Part shown: positions 24,701-55,800 of the stretch, one piece after another | Numbering within the stretch: position 1 is the first letter of the stretch | How the letters are laid out: the number at the start of each line of letters is the position of its first letter | Source of the DNA: Saccostrea cucullata | Lineage: Eukaryota | Assembly (NCBI RefSeq): GCF_032062105.1 | Contig: NW_026937605.1 | Span: forward strand, 1-59,489 | Length of the DNA: 59,489 bases | Direction of reading: 5' to 3' | Program-made: the position numbers and the translations under genes | The notes under the pieces: model-generated | What the model was told of the DNA's origin: nothing | The model's database searches: none | The model's input: the letters and a program-made list of their open reading frames with translations, nothing else

Positions 24701-27700
24701 TCTATATGCTTTGCAGAAAAAGCACAAGTCACTGTCTTCAAAGGTTATCCGCTATCTTCAAAAATGCTTTAATTATTTACTAGCACAAAACCAGGGAAAC
24801 CCAAAAGGAATAGAAAAAGCGCTTGATGCCCTCTGTAACCACCCTTTCGGAAACCATGAGTCATGCAGCGATTCCTGGTGTCAGCATGTCAACAATCCGA
24901 AGCAAAGGTAGAATAATCATAAATATGACTAATTTGTCAGACATACTGTATGTGTACTAAAAAAAGCAGGCTTCATATTTAAGCGGGTATGGCGCAGACA
25001 ATGATGCGCTAATTCATGAATATATAAACTGCTAAGAAATCATTGAAATATACAAAAAACTGCACGGATATAAGTAGTGCGAATTCATGAATAATAACTC
25101 CATACCCAGTGACTGCACTATATACTTTGAATACATCAAATTAAGTACATGCACAATAACTAGGATGTAATTCACAATCAATTTGAACAAATTAATATAC
25201 TTATAAACATTTATCTTATTTTGTGCAAGCTTTATTTTTTACACTTCTTAATCCTGATTTAATTGATTCAATTTATGTTCAAAATAAATTAAAGGTACAC
25301 TTCCTTGCCTTATGGAAAGCCATTAAAAGACTCGGCCCTTCAAGATTCTCTACATTCGTTATGCAACCAATGGAAGCAGAACAGCTGTAAGATTTCCAGG
25401 CTGGGAAGCACCCAACCAAATGAGTCCTTCAATAGGACTGTGTCACTGAAAGCTCCGAAAAACCACTACTTTAGCGGCTCAGCTAGCTTAAACTACAGAG
25501 TAGCAGCATCTGTGGCAGAAAAAAACTCCGGAGCATCTTATCTTGTTGCTGTGAGTATATTATATATACCGGTTGTTTGTAAATTCATATTAAAAAAAAA
25601 AAAAAAAAAAATAATAATAATAATAATAATAATAATCATTAATTTTTTAAGTCATAATATAATAAATGTGTACAAGCAATTTTTGTAATTAACATTCTCT
25701 CTTATAAATGTTTAATGTTTTTTTTGTTGTAATAGGTAAACAAAAAGATCGGGTTATCTCCAGGAAGGTTTACGAGAAAGTTGTGCTACCTCAGGGAATC
25801 CCAGACCAGGAAGAGAAAGGCGATCGCCAAAACTAAGGAGGCCAAGAGAAGAAGGCGTGAGTTGAAGGCCAGGAGGTAATGTAAAATAACCTCACATGAA
25901 TGATTCTGGTAATCAGTTTGGTTTATTGCAATACATGACTTTCTATTAGACTAAGCATTTATTCTCAATTCTTAAAGATCCTTGAGTACAACTAGAAAAG
26001 AAATTCATGAAGGATCCACATATGAATCTGGAATAGGGTTAGGTCCTCAGCAAGATAACATCATTACAGAAATTCCAGTCCCATGCCCAAGGCCACAGAT
26101 GGAAACAGTTGATGTTGAAAATCATACACTTATCTTATTTGATTTAGAAACTACAGGATTAGGTAATGATCTAATAGTTTTTATCTGATATTTAGGCATG
26201 CCATACATGGTGAAATTTATTCTGTATAATTAAAAAGCAGTAAATATACTCCACTAAAGTACTATTATTGTCTGTTGGCCAGGAGAGAATATATTTACTT
26301 GTTCAAACATAAACTGGTGCGCTAAACAGTAATATTTTCTTTTAGCTCGCACTTCTCATATTGTTCAGTTGGCAGCGGTACAGAAAGAGGATAGATTTTC
26401 TTCATACGTTATCCCTAAGAGGCCCATAACGCCAACAGCTTCCGAAATAACAGGACTCACTGTTAGGAATGGGAAACTCTACCATAACAACAAAGAAGTG
26501 GGAGGCATTTCTCTGGTGGCTGCAATGGATTCTTTCTTGAAATTTCTTGAAAAGTACAACAACATCATTTTAGTAGGTCACAACGTTAAGGTTTTTGATT
26601 GTCCAGTGCTTTTTCGAGCTCTTGAATCATGTTCAATGTTACCAAGATTTTCAAGAAAAGTGAAGGGGTTTATTGATACAAAGCTTTTGTTTCGAATATC
26701 TCATCCAAACCTGAGCTCTTATAGCCAGCAAAATCTTGTAGAAAGTCTACTTGCATGTTCATATGAAGCACATAATGCCCTTGAAGATATTTTAGTGTTG
26801 CAGAAGTTGCTAGAATTAGTGAATTTATCAGATGAAAAGCATAAAGGTGCTACATTTTCACTTGATTATGCAATGAATGTACTGTCTTACCAAAAGGAAG
26901 TTGACAAAAATTTTCCTTCCTTACAAATTCTTGTTCAGAAAAAGGTGTTGAGTGTGTGTATGGCTAAAAGAATAGCTGGAAGTGGGTTAGATTTTGATAG
27001 TTTGAGACTAGCTTACTCTAGAGATCAGAATGGTATCCATGCATTGTTTACTGAAGTCTGTAGCAACAGTTCTGTGAGCATGGTGAGGGTGACAAAGTCA
27101 AACAAAATTATTGAGGCTGTGAACTCTTTTTTTCTGTCATTAAATGAAAGTTAAATATATTATAATGTGCATTGTATTATTTAAATGAAAGCAATTCAAT
27201 GGTATTAATTTATTTTCATCAGCTTTTTTTAAAATACAAATTTAGCAAGTTTATAATCTTCCAGGTTTTTTTTTTTATACCAAAAAAAAAAGATTCTTGA
27301 AGGCGTATATTTAATATATGTTTTGAAGAAAATTAAGATATATGTTATTGTGTGCAACAATGTTAAAAAGTACAGCTTGTTCTCATCAGTATGTATTTTT
27401 GATGTATTCTATTAAATAACAGATTACCAAATGCATATTCATCTTACAATTATATTTTATACATCATGTATTTTATACCGACATGTACATGTACAATTGT
27501 AGTTCGTGATTGAGACCTGCCTAACGTTGTATGATAACCTGGCAAAGAGGTAATAGATTGATTATGTAATTGTGCAAAGCGAATTATTTAAGTTTAATTA
27601 ATTTTCCTGCCTCAAATTAAGGTATAGACTGTTATAACGATTAAATATTTGTTGTAAGATATTTTACACTTTTAAAATCCATAATCTTGTAAGATGTGAT

Positions 27701-28689: not shown

Positions 28690-29470
28690 TTAAATTGAAA
28701 TAAAGCATTTTACATTTTGGTGTTCGTAGAGTATTGAAAATGCATATAGTTCCTACTGTGTATTCTAACGCGCGGTGACAAGGTTTCACGACTGTGTTAT
28801 AGAAATTTGAACGTCGTAGATTTCTAATGGATTTCATAAGGAAAATTACACTGAATGTAAATTTAATTTTATTTTGGAGACCTGTAACTATCTATGGTAA
28901 TTGTATCCATCCTTGTGCACCGTCTATCATCGGTCGTCCATTAACATTTAAACATTCTCAGCTTTTTCTCTGAAATCACTGAATCAATTTTAGCATATAG
29001 CATCCATGGGTTATAGGAGCAAAAATTGTGTACATGTATTTCATGGTCCCTGCCCCCTTGGGGCCTGAAGGGTGGGGCAAATCCTTGTTAAAATTAATGC
29101 AATCTTCAAAATCTTCTTTATTCCCGGACATCAAGCAGTCAAACTGTTGGCATGATTGTAATTGGCATTGAGTTCTCTATCAATATTGTAAAACTCATGG
29201 CCCCAAGGTCAAGGCAGAGCTGCCAACCCTTACGATTTTGGCGTAAGGCTTACGAATTGAGGGTCTAAAATACGCCTTACGATTTCTCTCTTTATTCTTC
29301 CGATTTCCACTTTTTCTCGATCAAAGTTTGAAATACCGGAATTTTCATAGCTGGCCGTCTACAGGTTCTACTATTATAATAATATATTCAGAATCTTTAC
29401 AACGCTTGCTTGTATCGTCGGTTATAGAAAAGCCGATCGCAGTCATGTCAATGCTTTAAAAGTAAACAAA

Positions 29471-29924
29471 AGGTTACAGGATACTAATTTTACCCCTATT
29501 TCATTGACCACGCAAAGAGTTCCAGATTAAAAATAGAGTTTTTTTCTTAAAAAATCTTGGGGGTGTATATGGGGTGGAATGGGGTTATTTTAGGGCATAG
29601 ATGGAAAGGAGAGGGTCTGAAAAAAATTATAAAATTAAGAATAATGGGAATTTTGCTATTAAGTGCGTAGTAGGAAGGGTGTAAAGAGGCCATTGTTGAC
29701 CTATTTCTCAAAGGGAAATGGAAATATGCAGGGTAGGGGTAAATTGCAGTGCCATAGCAAGGCTTGTAGACTACAGAATTTTCTGAGACTTGAGAATATT
29801 TTTGGCCTTGGATGGATCTAGCTCTGTGCCAAATTTCAGGTGAGTTGAGGCGGTGAATTTTTTTTAATGATTTTTTATGTTATAAAGGAATGTATAGCAA
29901 AATAATTGGTAGTCCGTGTCCTAT
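29471..29924. repeat. Left long terminal direct repeat (454 bp)
   Basis: AGGTTACAGGATACTAATT...AATTGGTAGTCCGTGTCCTAT. No difference from 33526-33979 seen by eye. Its own ends form an imperfect inverted repeat. Confidence 0.95.
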
Positions 29925-30115
29925 CAGGTCAAAGTTCAAAACTCACGTTAATCATCTTTACGGCCATTTTTGTATACTATGGGATTAGTATTGATTAAAT
30001 ATGACAAAATTCTAAACAAAATTCTGATTTTGAAAAATATTTGGGGAAAAGATATGAAAAAAAGGGGGGGGTGTTTCCTTTACATTAACTGTTTGACCTA
30101 CTTTATGCAAATGAG

Positions 30116-30601
30116 ATGCGGCGTGATATGATTGACGTGAGTTTTGGCCTCGGTCTAGTAGTTTTCCTACTTTCGTCTGCTAACTTTCACTTTATTTCTC
30201 GAAGATTAACCATGAATGCATTTTTTACTAAGTATGTTGCCAAGGTAAACTCGGGCTCTGCCCCTGGATTGAATGGTCAGTGTCGCATTTGGACGGGGGC
30301 TAGAAGCAGCAACAACAAGTATGGTGTTGTGTGCTACAAGCATCCGATAAAGAACAGGTGGCAGACGATGCATGTGCATAGACTCAGTGTCATGTTACAT
30401 CATCGTTACCATGAGTTGGATGCATCAGTTGTTGCATCTCACTTATGCCACAACACGCTGTGTGTTGTTCCAGAACATATTGTTCTGGAGCCGCAGGGCG
30501 TCAACAACCAGCGACAGACCTGCAAATCTGGGGGCACCTGTCTGGGGCACCCACTGCCATATCCACCCTGTCGCCTTGAGCTGCGTATGAATGACGATTA
30601 A
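30116..30601 (+). CDS. His-Me finger (His-Cys box, homing-endonuclease-like zinc-binding) nuclease
   Basis: CRIWTG..YG..HVHRLS..SHLCHNTLCVVPEHI..EPQGVNNQRQTC..C.GH..PPC. The real start may be the internal Met of MNAFF near 30212. Confidence 0.9.
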   Translation: MRRDMIDVSFGLGLVVFLLSSANFHFISRRLTMNAFFTKYVAKVNSGSAPGLNGQCRIWTGARSSNNKYGVVCYKHPIKNRWQTMHVHRLSVMLHHRYHELDASVVASHLCHNTLCVVPEHIVLEPQGVNNQRQTCKSGGTCLGHPLPYPPCRLELRMNDD

Positions 30602-30772
30602 CAATCTAGGTAAGTTTATCACATTTATTATTATGTTACACCGCTGAAGATGGGAGAGGCATGCATCACTCCTCACAAAGTTAGTTAGTAAGTATTTGTC
30701 AATGAAAAAGTTAAAAGGTAATTATTAATGTCATTTTCATGTAACTTATTATTTTACAAAGTTCATAGCGAG

Positions 30773-32819
30773 TCACTCTCTTCCATGACGTGGCCTTAGA
30801 TGGTATCGTAATCCTCCATTCTTGTGATATGGGTGATCACGGGCAGCAGGTGAGTTGAAGTCAAGTTGACCTTTACGGTAATCTGAAGTTCCTCTTTGTT
30901 CCTCGCGGTACTGGTGATGCTCTGCCATTTTCCTTGCCAGCTGTCTGTTTCTTCTACTCTTTACTCTCTCTTTTCTGTGATAGGCTTGATTGTAGAGGAA
31001 CTTCTGCTCTAGTCTGTGTAGTTGTCGCTTTCCCTGTTCCGAGTACTGTATTCCAGCAGATTCGCATTTCAGTCTCGTCGAAGTACCAGGTAAGTTGTTC
31101 CGTCTGTGTATCATGGAATGAAGACGACCCTCCATTGTTCGAGAGAACTTAATGTTCTTGGGCATGTTGCAACTGGCACTGCGGTGGTAAGATTCATTGG
31201 CATTTGTGTCAGTCAGCAGCTTCATGGCGTTGATGGCTTCTACACTCAGTTTCATTTTAAGGATTTCTGTCACAATTTTAATGTCATTTTCACTCATTTG
31301 CAGTGTGGTGATCTTATATTATAAACTGCCAAATTGCGGCTGAAGTTCCAACAGTTGGAAACGCACCCACCATCACACACAAGCGAGTACGCCACACACA
31401 TTGAACAGTCACCAGTGTAACAGAGGACAGTGGCCTCAAGGACTTTAGGTAAGAAATCACTCATTTTCTGCAAGTCGCTGTTAAATCTTGTAAACAGTTC
31501 TTTAACTTAATCAAAGCACATCTTGACTTTAGGTCATTGCTGAACACCCTCTGAAGCTCTTTCTTCTGTTCTTTAGTCTTTGTATGGAACATTGCATCAC
31601 TGTAAACTGCTCGGTTGCTGGCACGGAACTGTGACTGCCCAAGGTGGACGGGGTCAGCAAGACGCTCTACTTTCCATAGGGGATGTAGAGCTCGCATGGC
31701 TTCGTCCACTCCTTTGGCACCTTGGGCGTCGCCGTCTGTGGTAACATACCGGACTAATACATCTTGTAGTGCGAGCTGTGTGCCGATGTCCTTCCCCATC
31801 TCGTACTCGGAAAATGGTGCTGCCCGTGGTAGATTGGAGGTACACTCAGGATGGCCACCTGGACAATCCACTTCCATTCCCTTGCCCCTTAGCCATGCAC
31901 CTGTCCAGCAGAGCTTATTTTGCAGAGCACAGGCAAGTATGTATTTTCTATCAGTGTTGGTTTCAACGGCCAATGAGAAGGCTTGACTGGCATTCTGTCC
32001 GGGAGTCTTACGGCTGAACATGATGTTACTGTTGTAACGGGCATCTGTTGAGATGTTGATGACATCCTCTGGATGGCCTCGGGTCCTGTTGATCTGTTTT
32101 ACTTTCTGTATCTTCTGATGCATATCTTCTTTGTTTAGCTTTGTAATATTTTTACTTATTTTAAACAGGAGCTTCTGGAGAGAGGCCTTAGTGGGAGATG
32201 GGATGTCCATGCAGCTAAGGAATTCTATAACCTTCTCAGCTCCTAGTGAAGTGTCCTGAAGGGCATATGCCAGGGCCATGTTTGATGCTGATGCTTTGCG
32301 TCCAGGACCCCCTTGATGAATTTCTTGGAATAGGGCAAACTCGGGTGAGTTGAACTGGCAATTAACACAAGTCAGTGAGTATTTCCAGGAAATTCCTACT
32401 TTTTTTGAGTACTGCACAGTAATGTTCGGTGCGGTACAAGTGGTAGACTGGTGAAGTTGTATGGTTTGATTAATCATCTCCATCATCTTGTCTTCGTCCA
32501 CTATACGTCGACCGCCTAAGTATTCGCTACTCTTTGGTATTTGTTTTTTGCAGTTTGATGGACGTGGCCGCAGAATGCAGGTTGATCCGCTCTCACCGTC
32601 GCAGTCCGGAGTTTGGTATGAATGGCTGTCGAGACTTGGTTTGGTGACCAGGGCATGATCTGTTGAATTCAGCCTGACAAATGATCTTCGACCAGAATTT
32701 GGCTGTTTTTCCATCTTGAAGCCGTGGCTATTTCCTTGATGAAATCCTCCTTGCCTTGGGAGCTTCCTCTTGCAGAGTTGCTTCCCTTTGTTCCAGGGAA
32801 CCATATTTTTCTTAAACAT
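30773..32819 (-). CDS. Kolobok-family DDE transposase, intronless, two frameshifts
   Basis: GRRIVD, CVNC, ISTDARYNS (D), TTDGDA (D), DPVHLGQ and TNANESYH (E). ORFs 31461-32996 and 30773-31297 are bridged by a third frame (KELFTRFNSDLQK..CYTGDCSMC). The lesions are +2 near 31506 and a 5-bp duplication at 31314-31323. Confidence 0.85.
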
Positions 32820-33525
32820 GATGGTGAGTAGAATACTACTTATTCTTGCAGATTCAGGCAATAATGCCTTGGTTTTTCTTATTTCAACCATATTTATAGT
32901 GCTTAATGTTTGATTATTCTTAGTATGGCATCTTGTATATATCCATGACATTTTTAATGTGACCAGGGATAATCCAGCATGACCTGTAAGTGCCACTTCC
33001 TGATATTGGCTGCTGTGGTCATGTTTGCTTATCTGCTCACAACAAAGGGATTAATCTGTTTTTATTATCTTTTACTGTTGTTTTTTATAGCCAATATAAT
33101 GTAGAATTTTTTCATAATTTTTATTTTGTAAATTTCTATTGATTAATATTTTATATAGGGCAGTTTTTAAGAAATTTCACCATATTTGGGGGTATTTTTT
33201 CAAAAAAATCTTAAGAATTTTATCTGCATAATTGATCAAAGTTGTTATCAGAATTAAGTAGAGGGGATATTAAAATTATAGAAAAAAATAATTGGTAAGA
33301 AATTTATTGTAACATATGTGATATGTGAGTATTTCAAATTTGTGCATTGTGTGTCTGATGCTCATTTCATCCTCTGTTTTCAGGAGATCCAGTCATCACT
33401 GAAAAGGGCCATAACTCTGCTGTTCAGATGACAAATCCAATGAGACTTCAGAGGGGTGTGTAGTATGGCTTTAGAAGATTCTGTGCCAATTTTCATCAAA
33501 ATCAAAGAAGGTTAGTGTCTTTATT

Positions 33526-33979
33526 AGGTTACAGGATACTAATTTTACCCCTATTTCATTGACCACGCAAAGAGTTCCAGATTAAAAATAGAGTTTTTTT
33601 CTTAAAAAATCTTGGGGGTGTATATGGGGTGGAATGGGGTTATTTTAGGGCATAGATGGAAAGGAGAGGGTCTGAAAAAAATTATAAAATTAAGAATAAT
33701 GGGAATTTTGCTATTAAGTGCGTAGTAGGAAGGGTGTAAAGAGGCCATTGTTGACCTATTTCTCAAAGGGAAATGGAAATATGCAGGGTAGGGGTAAATT
33801 GCAGTGCCATAGCAAGGCTTGTAGACTACAGAATTTTCTGAGACTTGAGAATATTTTTGGCCTTGGATGGATCTAGCTCTGTGCCAAATTTCAGGTGAGT
33901 TGAGGCGGTGAATTTTTTTTAATGATTTTTTATGTTATAAAGGAATGTATAGCAAAATAATTGGTAGTCCGTGTCCTAT
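33526..33979. repeat. Right long terminal direct repeat (454 bp)
   Basis: Copy of 29471-29924. Confidence 0.95.
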
Positions 33980-33982
33980 CAA

Positions 33983-48294: not shown

Positions 48295-48543
48295 CGGAAT
48301 TAACACCCAGTACATGGCTTTTTAAATTACCATTTATAAAATATAATGCGCCGTTTTTAGTTTGAATTTTTGCAAGTGATATACCACAAAGATAACAAAG
48401 TATGAGTTAGGTGTAAAATTATTACGATTTGAGTTAATAAACCTTTTCGCGATAATTCTCACACATGCGCATAAATGCTTCCGGACGGCAACATCCGCAT
48501 TCCTGTGATATTGACATTAGGCTTAGCAACACTGTCAACAATA

Positions 48544-51164
48544 ATGTCAAAGCGCGAAAATTTGAACAAATTAAAGGTAAATTCGCTAAAAGAAATAGCT
48601 CGCGATCAAGGAATAGAAATTAAGAAGAAGAAAAAAGAAGATCTAATTAGAGAAATTTTGACTAGCCAAGTGCCATTGATCGACTTAACACCGGTGACCA
48701 AGTCTAAAGAAGTCCTAGCAGAATGTATCTCACCTGCAACAGGAGAAAACGAGAATTTGCCACCTTATAACGCTGTACATTACAAGATACATGACCAGTC
48801 ACAGATTCCAACCATTTCATTTTCTGATATATATAACTTCATGATTCTGAGACCCAAATCGACAGGATCAGGAGGTAGTGTGAACAATTTTAAGGGGTTG
48901 GACAGAGCAGTGAAACATTTTGAAGCTGGCCATGTCCAGGAGATTAGCGTGTCAGAGGTAAACAAACAAGGGTTTTGTTCTGTTAAAGACATAGATCTAA
49001 ATCCAGTACTCCTTTTCAGTGATAAGTGCACATAGTTAATTATTTCTGTCGAAATTCTGCTACAGTAAGTATTTTATTTTTATAATTTAATAGTGGTGCT
49101 CATTTGTACTTATTAAGTATAATATGTTCATTTTCATATTTGTAAATGTTAGAATTAATAAATTGTGTTATTGTTACAATGTTGCTGGTATGTTTAAAAT
49201 ACTCTCTATTTGATTTTTAGATAAATACTACTATTATATACATCAGTGCCAAGTGCCAGGCTTCGATGAAGAAGCACCAATACCAAGTTTACATATGTTT
49301 GTCTAGGAATGGACAGTCTGTGACTAACATACATCATGGATATTGTCAGTGTCCTGTGGGGTATGCATATTTTCAGAGTTTTATGCAGACAATTTTTTTT
49401 TACTTCATTGATTATAACTTGATCTAAAATCTATGATATTTTTAAAATAGGCTAGGCCAGAGCTGTAGCCACATTGGGAGTTTACTCTTTGCGCTGAGTC
49501 ATATCAAGCCCCAGGAAAGCTGCACAAGTAAGCCCTGCAAATGGGTAGTACCCAAAGGAAGATCTAAAAAACCCACTGGTAAGTAAATTTTTTTATAGTC
49601 AGATTGTTAACAGATAACAAAAAACATATGAACTTTGAAGCTCTTTAACTGGCAAGTAACATAAAACCAATATAAACAGGTCCATTAGAAACCTTGAGGT
49701 CAAAAGCAGATAAAATGGACACTGAAACCAGTGATATAGAGGATGCTTCATTTGACCCTCGCCATACCACAGACAGAGACTTCGACATAAATACTACATT
49801 GCTTCAACTGAGAAATTTAAAGGATATTTTCCCAAGTACAGGTACAGCTAGGTTTAAGAAGGAAAATGTGAGAAAACAAATTTTTAAATGCCGAATTACA
49901 ATTTACTTAAAACGTGATACAAACATACTCCAGACTTTTAATTTCTATGATTCTCATGTTATTGAACAAAATGAAAATTCAGGTATGAGCCATTTGTGGA
50001 ACATCCCAGATGATGCCCCTGTAGCTGAGAGGGAGATTGAGGTGGAGACATATGAGGATCCATTGGAAATGGCATCCAAAGCATTGATCTTGTCAAATGA
50101 GAACTGTAAGAAAAAATAGGAATTACATTGTATATAAGAAAATATCTTTTATATGTTTCATGAACATTAGATTCATTCATATACATATCATTACAGTGCC
50201 AATCCCAATTTCAATTGACGAAAATTTGAGCGCCTATGTTGAAGAAAGAACTAAAGGTCAAAGAAAATGTTCTCTTTGGACCGAACTACGCAAAGGAAGA
50301 ATTACGAGTTCTCTTTTCGGAGCTGTTTTACATGCTGGACCTAACCCACGTAGTCTTGTGGACCAAATTATACATGGATCCAGTTTACAAAGGTTTAATG
50401 GAAATTAAAATATTAATAAAATATTAAATATATAAATAAAAATAATTGTAAAAATTCACATTAAACAAATTAATTCAGCATTTCAACCAATTTATATTTT
50501 TAAATATTAATTATTCTATACATCACAGGTATCAGACGCTTCCTCGTCCAGTCCAGTGGGGTGTGGACCATGAGGAAGAAGCGGTCAGAGACTACCTGAC
50601 ACTGCAGAATGCTGTCTCTGATGTAACAGTGGAGGCTGCAGGGCTCACTATTTATCCATCCCATGCCTTTTTAGGTGCCAGCAGTGATGGGTGGATTTGT
50701 GACAAGTCTATGCCACTGGGGAGTCAAAGAGGGGTACTTGAGATTAAGTGCCCGTACTCAATCTCTAATGAAATAATTGTAGAAAAAGAGGTATTTTTCA
50801 TATTACATTGTATTAATGTCTTTCATTTTGTCAGTTTTAAAGTTAACATAATTTTTTTAACATTTTGTTTATACTATTTATATAGGTCCATGAGCTAGCC
50901 GGAAAAGAGGGGTTCTGTCTGGAGAATACACCCGAAGGACCGCGTTTGAACCGTAGCCACAAGTACTATGCTCAGATCCAAGGAGAGATGGCAATAATGG
51001 GGTGTCCTTGGGGTGATTTTGTTGTTTGGACAGCTGCCAAGGACAGCAACTGTTTTATAGAGAGAATTGATTTCGACTCAGAGTTCTGTACTCGTATGAT
51101 GCCAAAACTAGTTGAATTTTTTGTTCACCACATCTTGCCTTTTTATAAATGTACTGAGAATTAA
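48544..51164 (+). CDS. SWIM zinc finger plus YqaJ/lambda-exonuclease (PD-(D/E)XK) protein of ISL2EU, 8 exons, 567 aa
   Basis: Exons 48544-48957, 49221-49360, 49451-49578, 49680-49841, 49983-50105, 50197-50392, 50529-50790 and 50886-51164 are phase-compatible. Motifs: CQCPVG..CSH (SWIM), SCTS..CKW, TKGQ..W..RKGRITSS, WG..HE, GASSDG, EIKCPY, YYAQIQGEM. Confidence 0.9.
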
Positions 51165-52848
51165 TTCACTTCCTGAGCCAATGGCTAATGTGAGCATTAC
51201 CTAATGATCAAAAAGTGTTCAGCTTCTGTCATCTGTAGACATTTGTTCACATTTTTGAATTTTTCTCCATCCACTGGGTGAGTTACTTGCCTTATTAAAG
51301 GATCCTTGGGTAAAGGGGAGATAATTAAGAATTAGTGTTGATTAGGGGGTATCAAAGTAATGCAGAAATATAAAGGAAATGTCTTTTAAAATCTTTTTTT
51401 CAAGAATAGCAAATGCATGATAATTAAGTCATATTAATCCAGGTAGTGTAGATTTAAGTATAGTTTTAAGTTCAAGTATATGGTAAGACATGCATAGATT
51501 ATTGTAAAAAAAAAATCACATTTGCACCTATATATAGTAAAAGTGAAAGAAAGGAAAATCAATATGGAATCAGGTTATATTTATTTTTCAATGTAATTTT
51601 TTTTCACATTACTCACATTCCTTGCTGTTATGGATTTTTTTGTAACATAAATTCAAATTTGATTTAAAAGAACAAAATATTATTTATTTTCATACATTTA
51701 AATCTGTTCAACTTCATAGACTGCATGAGTATGTAGTATACTGTTCAAAACATATGGTATCTGCTAAAAGTATAAATGAGATCAACATATAACACAAAAA
51801 TAATTTAAAGAAAAATTGAGTTTTATGACCTTTTAAATTTTACTCTCTGTCAGTATGATTAATCCATAATTTTTGTGTAGAACATTTTTTAGGTACCTTA
51901 AATATAAACAAAACCTCCTATACTCAAAATATTTTGAACACAGTAATTCAATCATTTGGAATTATAACAACCAGCAACACCAATTGCAAGTTTATATTAT
52001 GTCAAAATGTATTCTAAAAATTTTGTTTTGTGTAATTTTTAACATTTCATTCCAGAAACCAATGCCATCCAATGGCATGTAATTCATTGGGCTTTTCCAT
52101 TTTAAAATACAAAATGATTTAAAGGCATCATTTCAATCATAAGATTTTTCTCACAATAGGTACTTCAGAACCAATAGAGAAATGGACATTATTTTGTGTA
52201 CATCAAAGAATTTCCAGATAATATCAATAGGTTGATAAGGCTCTCTTGAATTATATAGTTTATAAAACATAGCTTTTATTATGGTTTTTTGTACAGGTTA
52301 GGATATACAGGCGGTGGATGAACCTTTTTGTAAGAACATTATACAAATACATATGTATACTGAAAGCCTTTTTATAACATTGTTATGCAAAAATTAAAAT
52401 TGAAGAGTTGCTCCCCTTTAGACATCTCATTCAGTTTATAGAAGAAAATATTAAATACTGGTTACATTACTTATGATACCAAATAATGTTAACATGTATG
52501 AGTGATTTCTTAACTATTTTCAAAATATCTTTAAAAGTAACACAAATTGTGAAATTGGCAATTCAAGAGATTTTCAAAATAATTACAGGATACTCTAGTC
52601 TACTCTGATATCTCCATTGTAGGAATGCCTGGCAAGATGCCTCATATTTTGTGAGGAATCTTCTTTCTTTGTGTGAAAGTTACAATTTAATAATTCAATG
52701 ACAAGCTGTCTTGAGAAAAATTTTATATTAGTGTGAAAATTGTTGTCAATATCTAAAATGAATATACATCATATATCTAGACTAAGTGTATTCCAATTAA
52801 AATTTGATACATTGAATTTTGTTATACATTGTATATAGCAATGACAAA

Positions 52849-55800
52849 TTAGTTATTTACCAGAGGAACATCAAGATTTGTGAGCCAACATACAACTTGA
52901 AACATTTTGGTCAAAAGAGGCTTAAGAGTAAGTGGCATAACACCATCAAAGATATGAAAATTCTTTACTCTGCCTATGCTTCTCTCAACATGAATACGCA
53001 GAGAAGCGATATCTTGGGTTTCAAAAACTTCATCCGTAGAGAACTGTGGTGCACTTCCTCTAAAGGGTGGAATGTTTAACTTGCATTTCTTTTTCTCCAA
53101 CAAATCCCTAATGGTAAAACCTTTATCAGCCATAACACTATCATTTTCATCTAACAATTCAATTAAACCTGAAGATATTGTGAGTTCTCTATCAGATGTT
53201 TTTCCAGGCCAACCTTCAGATACAAATGTTATAACTCCAGATGGACTAATACCAATCAAAAATTTGGCAGTGGTATGGTGCTTGTAATTTGAAAAAGTTA
53301 AACTTTGGGTGTCAAGACGAGATGATTTTTGTATAAAAATTTCTGTACAATCTATGATAACTCGAACTGAAGGATATCTGATTTTAAATGAAGATGGCAT
53401 AGTTCTTTGAATAATATCTCGAGACGGGAAAGGGTTTAAACATTTCAATTCTTGCCACAGTAGACAGATCCATGTAGAAAAATATTTTGAAAAAGTACCC
53501 TCTGAAATTTGAAATCGTTCAGCAATATCGCTGGTCAAGAGTCCAACCTTCAGTCTAATAAGAACTGCAAACATCTGATCGATGTAATCCAATGCCCCTG
53601 CTGATGCTCTCTTGCGGTCAGAAGAAATATCTGTGCTTGTCCCTAGCCAATACTTCATTTTCTCTGCCTTTGGTTTTAGAAAGCTAAAAGCATGCAAAAA
53701 ATTTTGTCAGTACATGTACATGCAATTTCATAAAATTATGAAAAAAAAGTTAAAAAACTGATAATAAACCCCATCGTCTCAAGCCACGGTCCGGAGTCCG
53801 CATATATAGCTATCTCCTACCCGTGGCTGCTTGATCACAAAAAGAGTCATATTCTTGAATATTTAAATTTACGCCTCTCTATTGTGATGTCATATTCAGT
53901 CAGTGGCCAATACTGTTTCCATCGCAAATGAAATCAACAAATGATGTCAACAGTATACAAGACATATTTCCTATACTGCGATTGGATATTGAAAGGTCGC
54001 AATAAAGTTCATCATCCGACTATGCTTTACTCGCATTGGTCAATATTTTAATGAGCTACAAAGAATTCTTTCCTCGTTCAACCAAGGCCAGAATGGGAGA
54101 GGATATCGTACATTTTGGCCGTGGTTTGTGACGATGAATAAATCTTTGCAGAAGTAATAGTAAATTTTTATACATGTTATAAACATACCTGAATAGCCAC
54201 ATGAATACAGCAAATGTTGGAAGTCCAGTATAAAAGCGGGTCTTGGAATCATCATCTGTAATTTTCTGGAAACTCCATTTATGTTTCTTCACTTCTATTT
54301 GGAGGTCTTTCACCTGTTTCTTTAATGAGTCATTTTCTGCCATCAAAGGGTCAGTGTCACACTGCATACCTATGGTCAGTCATGAAAAACATGTTTAAAA
54401 GAAGTGTAAAAATGCCTTGTGAAATTATTGTTATATAAGGGCAAACATTAAAGCCATATATGGCGTAACTGATCAAAAAAATATATTTTTGAAAAATACA
54501 AAATTAAGTGAAGAAATTTAGTTAATACATTTAAATTAAAACTTTCGTACAATTCTGAACACGGAGAACACCTCGTTTCAACTAAAAATACGATTTTATC
54601 TTCTCTGTAATGTGTTATTTAAATATTTTGTATTTTCTTCCGAGTCGGAGAAAATTCCGAGAATCCAAATTAAATTGTGATATGTTTATAACGCAATTGA
54701 CATAGATTTTGTAATTTACGGAAAAGTTCTATCTTTATTTAAAGTAATGATACAAATATTAAGTTCTTATAATTTTAGTCTTATAATTTTCATTGTACAT
54801 ACGCCATATATGGCTTTAATGTAAATATATACTGTATACAGGGTTATTTTTCGCCCCGTGTTATTTTTGCCCTTTCACATTTGGAAAGAAGTTTGCCCGG
54901 GCATTTTAAAATTGCTCAGAAAGATTTTTTTAAGATATTATACTATTTTAATACTATAAACCTAATGTATATTAGTTTTGTGTATCTTTTTCCTTCTTTT
55001 GAATTTTTTTTCCAACTAATATAGAGGAATGTGTCAAATAAGAATAATAGATATCCTCAAAATAGAAAATTTATTTTATATTAAAACTTAGCTCTTTACC
55101 TTTCTCTTTGAAAGTCTTGATGTTAACATCATCTACAGGTAAATCTATGCAAGAGCTGTCTGTAAAAGGTGGGATATCTTCATTTGTTGTTCCTTGGTGA
55201 CAATAGCTGTGAGAAAACAAGCTAAACCTGAGATGCTGCTGTAGAGTCTGTGTTTCTCTTTCCTCTTGCTCATTTAACTCCTGTTTAAAGGAAAGATTTA
55301 TGAATTTGCAGTTGTTGGAAGAATAAAGACATATAATCATGGGAATATAAAAATATTTGATCAATGTGAATTACTATGTAAAATTTTTCCCCAGGAGGTA
55401 GTGGGGTAATAATGCTTGTGGTCTAGTCATACTTTTGGAGTTAGACAAGAGTTGTGGAGTGTGTATATTAGCAAGGTCCAGGGATTAAACTACAAGCTTT
55501 AACAAATTTTAACTATCAGTAATAGTAATTTAAAAAAAACATATTTGACAACATTAATTAGTGTTATTTCAAGTATATAACCTGTAAGAATTAGGTAAAT
55601 AGTATGGTGTCTGATAAATTTTAAATGTCTAAATATGTTTACTAGTATGTGGTACTACATAATTATATTGTGCAAGATGCACTCACACTTTGACCCTTTA
55701 TAATTGCAACAATATACTTAATTAAATGTACATGATTGTATAATTAAGTAAAAATAAAAGGAGAGATTTCAGAAAATAAAAAACACATTAGGTAAGGGAT

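Follow-up and report, generated by a model that had tools for sequence, protein, structure and literature searches.

How does a DNA transposon come to carry two identical long terminal direct repeats (LTDRs), and why would a scrap of its own interior lie just outside one of them? Both questions are raised by an element of 4,505 bp with the layout LTDR-INT-LTDR (INT, interior) in Saccostrea cucullata. It spans positions 29472-33976, with ends set by sister copies, of the stretch analysed here (assembly GCF_032062105.1, contig NW_026937605.1, positions 1 to 59,489; this whole stretch of 59,489 nucleotides is called the window, and sister loci carry our labels beginning with L). The sequence supports reading the element as a KolobokP DNA transposon, in a copy with a broken transposase. 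That this architecture is already known, as the original prediction supposed, is borne out by its publication by Kojima and Bao in 2022 (PMC9587614). Two genomic signatures narrow the transposition pathway: a reset of the LTDRs at the level of the lineage, and scraps of interior sequence where copies have inserted. From these, the donor is predicted to be an array or concatemer, and a 15-bp repeat-interior junction becomes a candidate nuclease substrate. We consider it rather probable that monomers are cut from tandem arrays of one LTDR-interior unit; the nuclease may cut the repeat-interior junction.

Identity of the terminal repeats

The two direct repeats had been described as 454 bp long, identical by eye and with imperfect inverted ends. 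The identity is confirmed, as an exact match starting at positions 29471 and 33526 extends for 456 nt and the true termini enclose 450 of 450 identical positions. The length had to be corrected: the target site duplications (TSDs) of sister copies place the termini such that each repeat has 450 bp (Table 1). Once the repeat is read as GG..CC and 450 bp, a clean 4-bp TSD is seen in 37 of 61 paired ends, two of which are one insertion, in a sample enriched for odd junctions. The terminal inverted repeat (TIR) of the LTDR is present but weak (8 of 13 ungapped matches). When the repeat was searched against its own genome, 438 candidates were retrieved, and the 40 that were scored have identities of 86-100%.

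We compared the repeats of 35 elements with at least two LTDRs. An element's own pair is strictly the closest in 20 of the 35, and 58 private substitutions are common to all LTDRs of one element, distributed over 21 of the 35 elements and including four in the window copy. Only one left- or right-specific LTDR variant was found, versus 197 minor variants present on both sides, whereas plain monomer cut-and-paste would be expected to pass on the left and right repeats as separate lineages. The window interior carries 20 private substitutions in 3,453 columns, from which 5.2 differences between the repeats are predicted; none is seen (P 0.005). The original prediction had offered a recent insertion or repeat copying for the identical repeats; the four shared private substitutions support copying, and recent insertion alone is a poor fit to zero differences.

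The timing of this copying was addressed with six insertions that are each present as a pair of copies, either haplotigs or segmental duplicates. Across these duplicated loci there is no copy-specific change common to both LTDRs, while 17 left-right differences are kept in both copies, 18 changes affect a single LTDR and one site is crossed. The lack of shared copy-specific changes indicates that sitting copies are not being homogenised, and the retention of left-right differences makes smoothing by the assembly unlikely. The reset therefore belongs to the transposing lineage, at or before insertion, and does not proceed steadily in place.

Interior tips at insertion junctions

Since the window copy landed in a hAT-type element that is itself repeated, its target can be read directly from empty copies of the site. 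In L052 and L053 these run AACAAAA TGG, against AACAAAA, element, TATCA AA TGG at the filled site. The target is therefore AAAA. Two or three bases of its right duplicate are left, and in place of the rest stands TATCA, the 5 bp with which the interior begins. The CAAA duplication proposed originally is rejected because the empty site would then have three A's. There may be a one-base error in the A run at this junction; the filler holds in either case. Within 29215-36976 of the window, the KolobokP copy lies at the ATG of the host hAT-type element (ORF, open reading frame, at 34883-36976, PF05699). About 20 bp further right, a 645-bp miniature inverted-repeat transposable element with an 8-bp TSD, GTCTGGAG, is found at 34002-34646.

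Such fillers recur through the genome. Among outer right ends in a sample unselected for fillers, 9 of 81 (8 distinct flanks) start with TATSA, where 0.05 are expected from the TSD base matrix; the 81 are 83 matches minus two interior variants. A pattern search for right ends followed by TATSA and a non-G base gave 20 matches, four of them interior variants and the remaining 16 representing about 13 distinct flanks. In five of the six elements where filler and interior can both be seen, the two carry the same allele, TATCA or TATGA; the exception is a chimeric element. Left ends mirror the right ones with TATTA: nine cases among the 100 listed of 124 rows reduce to six distinct candidates after the removal of duplicates and one clean TSD. 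Four of the ten unselected top-hit insertions with both ends have a tip and six have a clean TSD. The fillers are graded, with the TSD whole outside T, TA, TA, TAT and TATCA on the right and TA and TATTA on the left, and others partly replace the TSD; L079, for example, reads AGTT, LTDR, TATCA AGTT, and L123 reads AAAA TATTA, element, AAAA. One filler is repeated in three copies of a locus and another in two. Several candidates were discarded, namely L140 and L141 as left fillers, which are interior-end variants, and L137, L157 and L191, which reflect local duplication, truncation or mis-pairing.

The same feature can be seen in published data: by eye, 10 of 115 KolobokP-6_GiAe rows in Fig. 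S4 of PMC9587614 have that family's tip at an outer junction. In the portion of its main text available to us, interior-tip fillers and LTDR resetting are not discussed, and footprints are described for LTDR excision only.

Transposase and nuclease

The original prediction placed a transposase and a nuclease in convergent ORFs. This layout stands, with PF20700 on the minus strand (E 1.8e-62) and PF05551 on the plus strand, but the transposase frame is not intact: it is split where this copy alone has 2 extra bp (31508-31509) and 5 extra bp (31314-31318), which are either mutations or assembly errors. Neither insertion is present in RNA contigs, which come from other copies. A 723-aa frame is open in five of nine other interiors (L001, L003 with two units, L004 and L005), and a 704-aa frame is open in L007. 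The dN/dS ratio (nonsynonymous to synonymous substitution rate) between the L001 and L003 transposases is 0.084; rows with L007 and L216 were out of frame and were excluded. The protein has the C/DxxH motif and a CCHC finger, and its core is identical to KolobokP-4_CGi_1p at 166 of 179 residues as counted by eye, which groups it with KolobokP, by identity rather than by tree. As claimed originally, no retroelement genes were found among the ORFs examined, and the three interior ORFs scanned yielded only the DDE transposase and the His-Me nuclease.

The nuclease residues S76, H77, H89, E93 and N98 align with S97, H98, H110, E114 and N119 of I-PpoI and are invariant or near-invariant across 101 aligned homologues. 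A profile search against the PDB gave I-PpoI as the sole match (E 8e-10). An alignment-based structural model has a predicted local distance difference test (pLDDT) score of 95.7, and its top Foldseek rows are I-PpoI, at E 8e-3; no row was obtained at E<=0.001. Among four subfamily copies the nuclease dN/dS is 0.19-0.38, and one copy (L121) carries a stop. I-PpoI cuts a semi-palindromic site in ribosomal DNA (rDNA), leaving a 4-nt 3' overhang (PMC2602781). The LTDR-interior junction, present in 139 genomic instances of the form TGTCC TATCA GGTCA, is likewise semi-palindromic and is a candidate for the site that the KolobokP nuclease cuts.

The interior ends look like LTDR ends, with GGTCAAAG after TATCA and GTGTCY preceding TTATTA. 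The last 500 bp of the interior (33021-33520) align weakly to the LTDR, with a score of 86, against 50 +/- 7 (maximum 73) for shuffles; this likeness is possibly a relic of a common origin. Divergence along the interior is mosaic, L003 being furthest at 30400-31500 and L007 at 30000-30200 and 32400-33400, a pattern pointing to recombination between subfamilies.

A proposed tandem-array donor and its rivals

The count of solo repeats and arrays suggested with the original prediction gave 15 solo LTDRs with a clean TSD among the paired ends and arrays of 3-8 LTDRs that are 0-6 mismatches apart. That arrays could release monomers is noted in PMC9587614. A non-autonomous partner of about 2.9 kb (L182-L192, L199, L200, L234-L242), whose LTDRs are 82% identical and which has a transposase relic and no nuclease, is more numerous than the autonomous family and has the longest arrays.

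The cycle that we propose would begin with the amplification of one LTDR-interior unit into a head-to-tail array, giving identical LTDRs. The I-PpoI-like nuclease could conceivably start this amplification by cutting the semi-palindromic junction, whereupon repair would copy the whole repeat; this is the weakest step, and we are more inclined to doubt it than to accept it. The DDE transposase would then cut the array at GG..CC ends and so free either LTDR-INT-LTDR monomers or single LTDRs. Flaps are left by DDE cleavage as a matter of general DDE chemistry, and since an element within an array has interior DNA as its donor flank, flaps of 1-5 nt of TATSA or TATTA would be carried along. Most flaps would be removed to leave a clean 4-bp TSD, and at about one in ten right ends they would be ligated, extending or partly replacing the TSD. 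Array donors would therefore produce both signatures, with repeats that copy one another and ends that are each flanked by interior DNA. The window copy would have been cut from an (LTDR-interior)n array and pasted at the start of the hAT transposase gene by the transposase of an intact sister; an extrachromosomal concatemer made from a one-LTDR circle would be an equally suitable donor. The broadest form of the proposal, in which nearly all transposition passes through a one-unit array or concatemer, launched by the nuclease and completed by the DDE transposase without reverse transcription, is put forward tentatively and is rather doubtful.

Monomer cut-and-paste could be kept if the fillers were footprints of later excision and the LTDRs were homogenised in place by gene conversion or by expansion and contraction, a combination that we judge unlikely. 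In its footprint version, a unit of interior plus LTDR exits a dimer or monomer via the TIR-like interior ends; the resemblance of these ends to LTDR ends, including the weak alignment of the final 500 bp, suits this, trimming of ends would yield identical graded fillers, and LTDR excision with the loss of 1-5 bp is reported in PMC9587614. However, a genome pattern search found no interior start with a non-A preceding base, and six further candidates are spacer variants, internal duplications, interior-interior joints, an LTDR-end deletion and an unresolved contig end. The 100 listed of 117 interior 3' ends all enter the LTDR start or a small variant of it (this pattern kept normal junctions too and was used as a plain census). 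The same interior-start and interior-end searches gave no reciprocal products, and movement of the interior core by cryptic ends of its own found no support. Right fillers belong to about 10 distinct full-length elements versus four solos, whereas excision from abundant monomers would predict an excess on solos, and no in-place homogenisation followed insertion in the six duplicated loci. Still less probable is a TATSA-like target preference that supplies the fillers, combined with very recent insertion or assembly smoothing that makes the repeats identical. TSDs are AT-rich and the assembly has indel-rich contigs, yet the empty site lacks TATCA and each filler tracks the allele of its element; in the duplicated loci, left-right differences have come through assembly, and the P of 0.005 for zero differences speaks against recent insertion. 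We regard this explanation as highly improbable.

Copy-out-paste-in transposition via circles, as in IS3 and IS256, falls between these two and is quite unlikely. Here one LTDR end would attack 4-5 bp beyond another end, giving CC-spacer-GG, and one-LTDR circles that insert or recombine into solo LTDRs and so rebuild monomers are drawn in Fig. 5b of PMC9587614. The locus L004 (L004:544-1448, G000:C5954) has an LTDR-TATCA-LTDR joint, with alleles of the non-autonomous subfamily in the spacer and in the first 103 bp of the third repeat, inside a repeat of the resident type; chimeric elements exist (L121), and the spacer length is near that of the TSD. Nevertheless, this is one junction versus 139 normal ones, and CpG decay could account for the only diagnostic base upstream of it. 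A circle recombining into an unrelated solo would leave hybrid LTDRs on both sides instead of an identical pair that shares private variants, and a full-length circle from a chromosomal monomer would have a spacer of host DNA, not interior tips. No joint of this kind occurs in the contigs of four DNA runs. The single end-to-start joint in those contigs contains 16 other letters, matches the L159 flank and was set aside as a neighbouring insertion. The DNA contigs of run X1 have very high depth.

Several observations weigh against the array or concatemer donor as well. In 15 of the 35 elements the own pair is not strictly the closest, these being young ties or aged pairs with up to 18 differences, and the duplicated-locus test spans a short time, with some single changes possibly being assembly errors. 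The 15 distinct insertions with both flanks that bear a tip (11 right, 4 left) do not amount to a frequency, as most tip-bearing loci were fetched by the tip pattern. Fillers of 1-2 nt could be chance, about six non-clean junctions have no tip explanation (L146, L148, L159, L172, L180 and L208/L210), and the TA-rich interior tips may be relic Kolobok TSDs. The L004 joint is the one LTDR-TATCA-LTDR joint in the whole assembly, and no head-to-tail joint with a TATCA spacer is found in the contigs of the four DNA runs, where contigs drop rare forms. For the nuclease, the semi-palindrome is the sole tie to the junction, and RNA reads over its frame are divergent at about 2x in X23 and absent from X24, X18 and X6.

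We would also like to note that L208/L209, where an LTDR without a TSD occurs every 4.8 kb around 4.4 kb of unrelated DNA, was considered as cargo capture. The same flank DNA recurs in L210 and also on the outer side of the first LTDR, which is more simply explained by a larger tandem duplication, and the LTDRs of L208-L210 probably lie within such a duplication.

Expression and other features of the window

RNA runs give thin coverage of the transposase region, with reads from various copies. Four RNA joints have plus-strand GT..AG borders (31442-31571, 31445-31767, 32343-32553 and 32822-33383), three of them with 3-7 raw reads in X24, and contigs are found in X18 and X6. The joints imply splicing of RNA that runs in the direction of the nuclease and is antisense to the transposase; such RNA may start in host genes. 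Donor-like sites lie at 30611, following the stop codon of the nuclease, and at 33511, close to where the interior ends.

Elsewhere in the window, 24450-27154 contains PF20700 pieces followed by a DEDDh/exuperantia-like exonuclease ORF (PF22123, PF00929); a transposase followed by such an exonuclease is the KolobokD layout (PMC9587614). A B-box and NHL-repeat (TRIM-NHL-like) gene in two overlapping frames is on the minus strand at 12703-14411, and satellite-like arrays with periods of about 156 and 167 bp are at 15682-16488 and 37258-43490. At 48475-53706, a YqaJ-like exonuclease exon (PF09588) faces a DDE_Tnp_4 transposase (PF13359) in convergent orientation, an arrangement that resembles an ISL2EU/Harbinger-type element.

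Table 1. Features of the KolobokP copy and its target site (window coordinates)
Feature	Position	Strand	Description	Basis or remark
Left target copy	29468..29471		AAAA	Final A doubles as the first base of an ATG in the host hAT element
Left LTDR	29472..29921		450 bp, GG..CC, weak TIR	Clean TSDs at such termini in sister copies
LTDR-interior junction	29917..29931		TGTCC TATCA GGTCA, 15-bp semi-palindrome	Candidate nuclease site
INT (interior)	29922..33526		3,605 bp; first bases TATCA, last TTATTA	Tips equal those of KolobokP-4_CGi-I
His-Cys-box (His-Me finger) nuclease	30212..30601	plus	129 aa, intact	PF05551 (zf-His_Me_endon), E 1.3e-11
DDE transposase	30773..32951	minus	Motifs STDARY, CCHC finger, TTDGD, DPVH, TNANE	PF20700
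Right LTDR	33527..33976		Equal to left LTDR	Includes 4 substitutions private to the window copy
Filler and target remnant	33977..33983		TATCA (interior 5' tip) + AA	TATC + AAA equally good

Comparison with known systems

A 2026 review describes the KolobokP pathway model as awaiting confirmation (PMC13565253), and our literature search, with Repbase Reports and most subscription journals outside its reach, found no other mechanistic KolobokP paper. If the cycle proposed here is true, a DNA-only cycle can maintain LTR-like repeats (LTR, long terminal repeat), and LTDR divergence can date insertions. Copies with intact transposase and nuclease are present in this genome, which makes a test of the pathway practical.

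In PMC9587614, KolobokP is defined by LTDR-INT-LTDR with LTDRs of about 450 or 660 bp, 5'-RR..YY-3' ends, a short imperfect TIR and a TSD of 3-5 bp, mostly 4. Its DDD/E transposase has C/DxxH and, behind the first D, a CCHC finger; its I-PpoI-like His-Me nuclease is downstream on the opposite strand, and it forms solo LTDRs and (LTDR-INT)n-LTDR multimers. The window element has LTDRs of about 450 bp with GG..CC ends, a family TSD of 4 bp, the transposase motifs and a downstream, opposite-strand I-PpoI-like nuclease in which the five key residues are kept. The membership suggested originally is thus upheld in architecture, LTDR length, RR..YY ends, TSD, both proteins, solos and multimers, and a comparison with the published entries, as far as available, matches the transposase and interior ends to KolobokP-4_CGi and KolobokP-1_CHo. 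KolobokP-4_CGi is very close in dimensions (4,510 bp against 4,505 bp here, LTDR 451 bp against 450 bp, GG..CC, 4-bp TSD), and it and KolobokP-1_CHo share with the present family the interior tips, the convergent His-Me nuclease, solos, arrays and a non-autonomous partner of about 2.9 kb (PMC9587614). Text searches of the supplement to that paper, in its available part, gave no match to the LTDR start or the nuclease motif. The LTDR sequence is clearly different from the CGi repeat in the published data at hand, and the present family is therefore a sister family in another genome. Unlike the KolobokP copies in the available published material, the window copy has a frameshifted transposase and a partly replaced TSD.

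The nuclease resembles I-PpoI (PDB 1A73, 1EVW) in its SHLCHN-C-H-E-N motif, its catalytic His and Asn and its zinc ligands. It is shorter (129 versus 163 aa), with about 18% identity over the fold and a template modelling (TM) score of about 0.5, and its gene lies in a transposon, whereas that of I-PpoI lies in an rDNA intron.

MuDR/Mutator elements have long TIRs and TSDs of 8-10 bp. Although PF20700 is labelled Mutator-like, this class was rejected because the element has directly repeated ends and a TSD of 4 bp. LTR retrotransposons and terminal-repeat retrotransposons in miniature (TRIMs) have TG..CA ends and either encode gag/pol or rely on them. They resemble the present family in having direct repeats that are identical at birth and later diverge in a clock-like manner, in their solos and in their tandem arrays. 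A retrotransposon or TRIM was nevertheless rejected, given the GG..CC ends and the proteins found in the scanned interior ORFs; unlike LTR retrotransposons, the element has a Kolobok-type DDE enzyme and no reverse transcriptase or gag ORF, and we infer that the LTDR reset has to be DNA-based. Bacterial composite and pseudo-compound transposons, IS26 translocatable units and IS3/IS256 circles, which are discussed in PMC9587614, share the arrangement of two direct, TIR-bounded modules around cargo and the short donor-derived spacers beside the ends. In contrast to these bacterial systems, KolobokP is eukaryotic, carries its transposase in the cargo and not in the repeats, and has a homing-type nuclease aboard.

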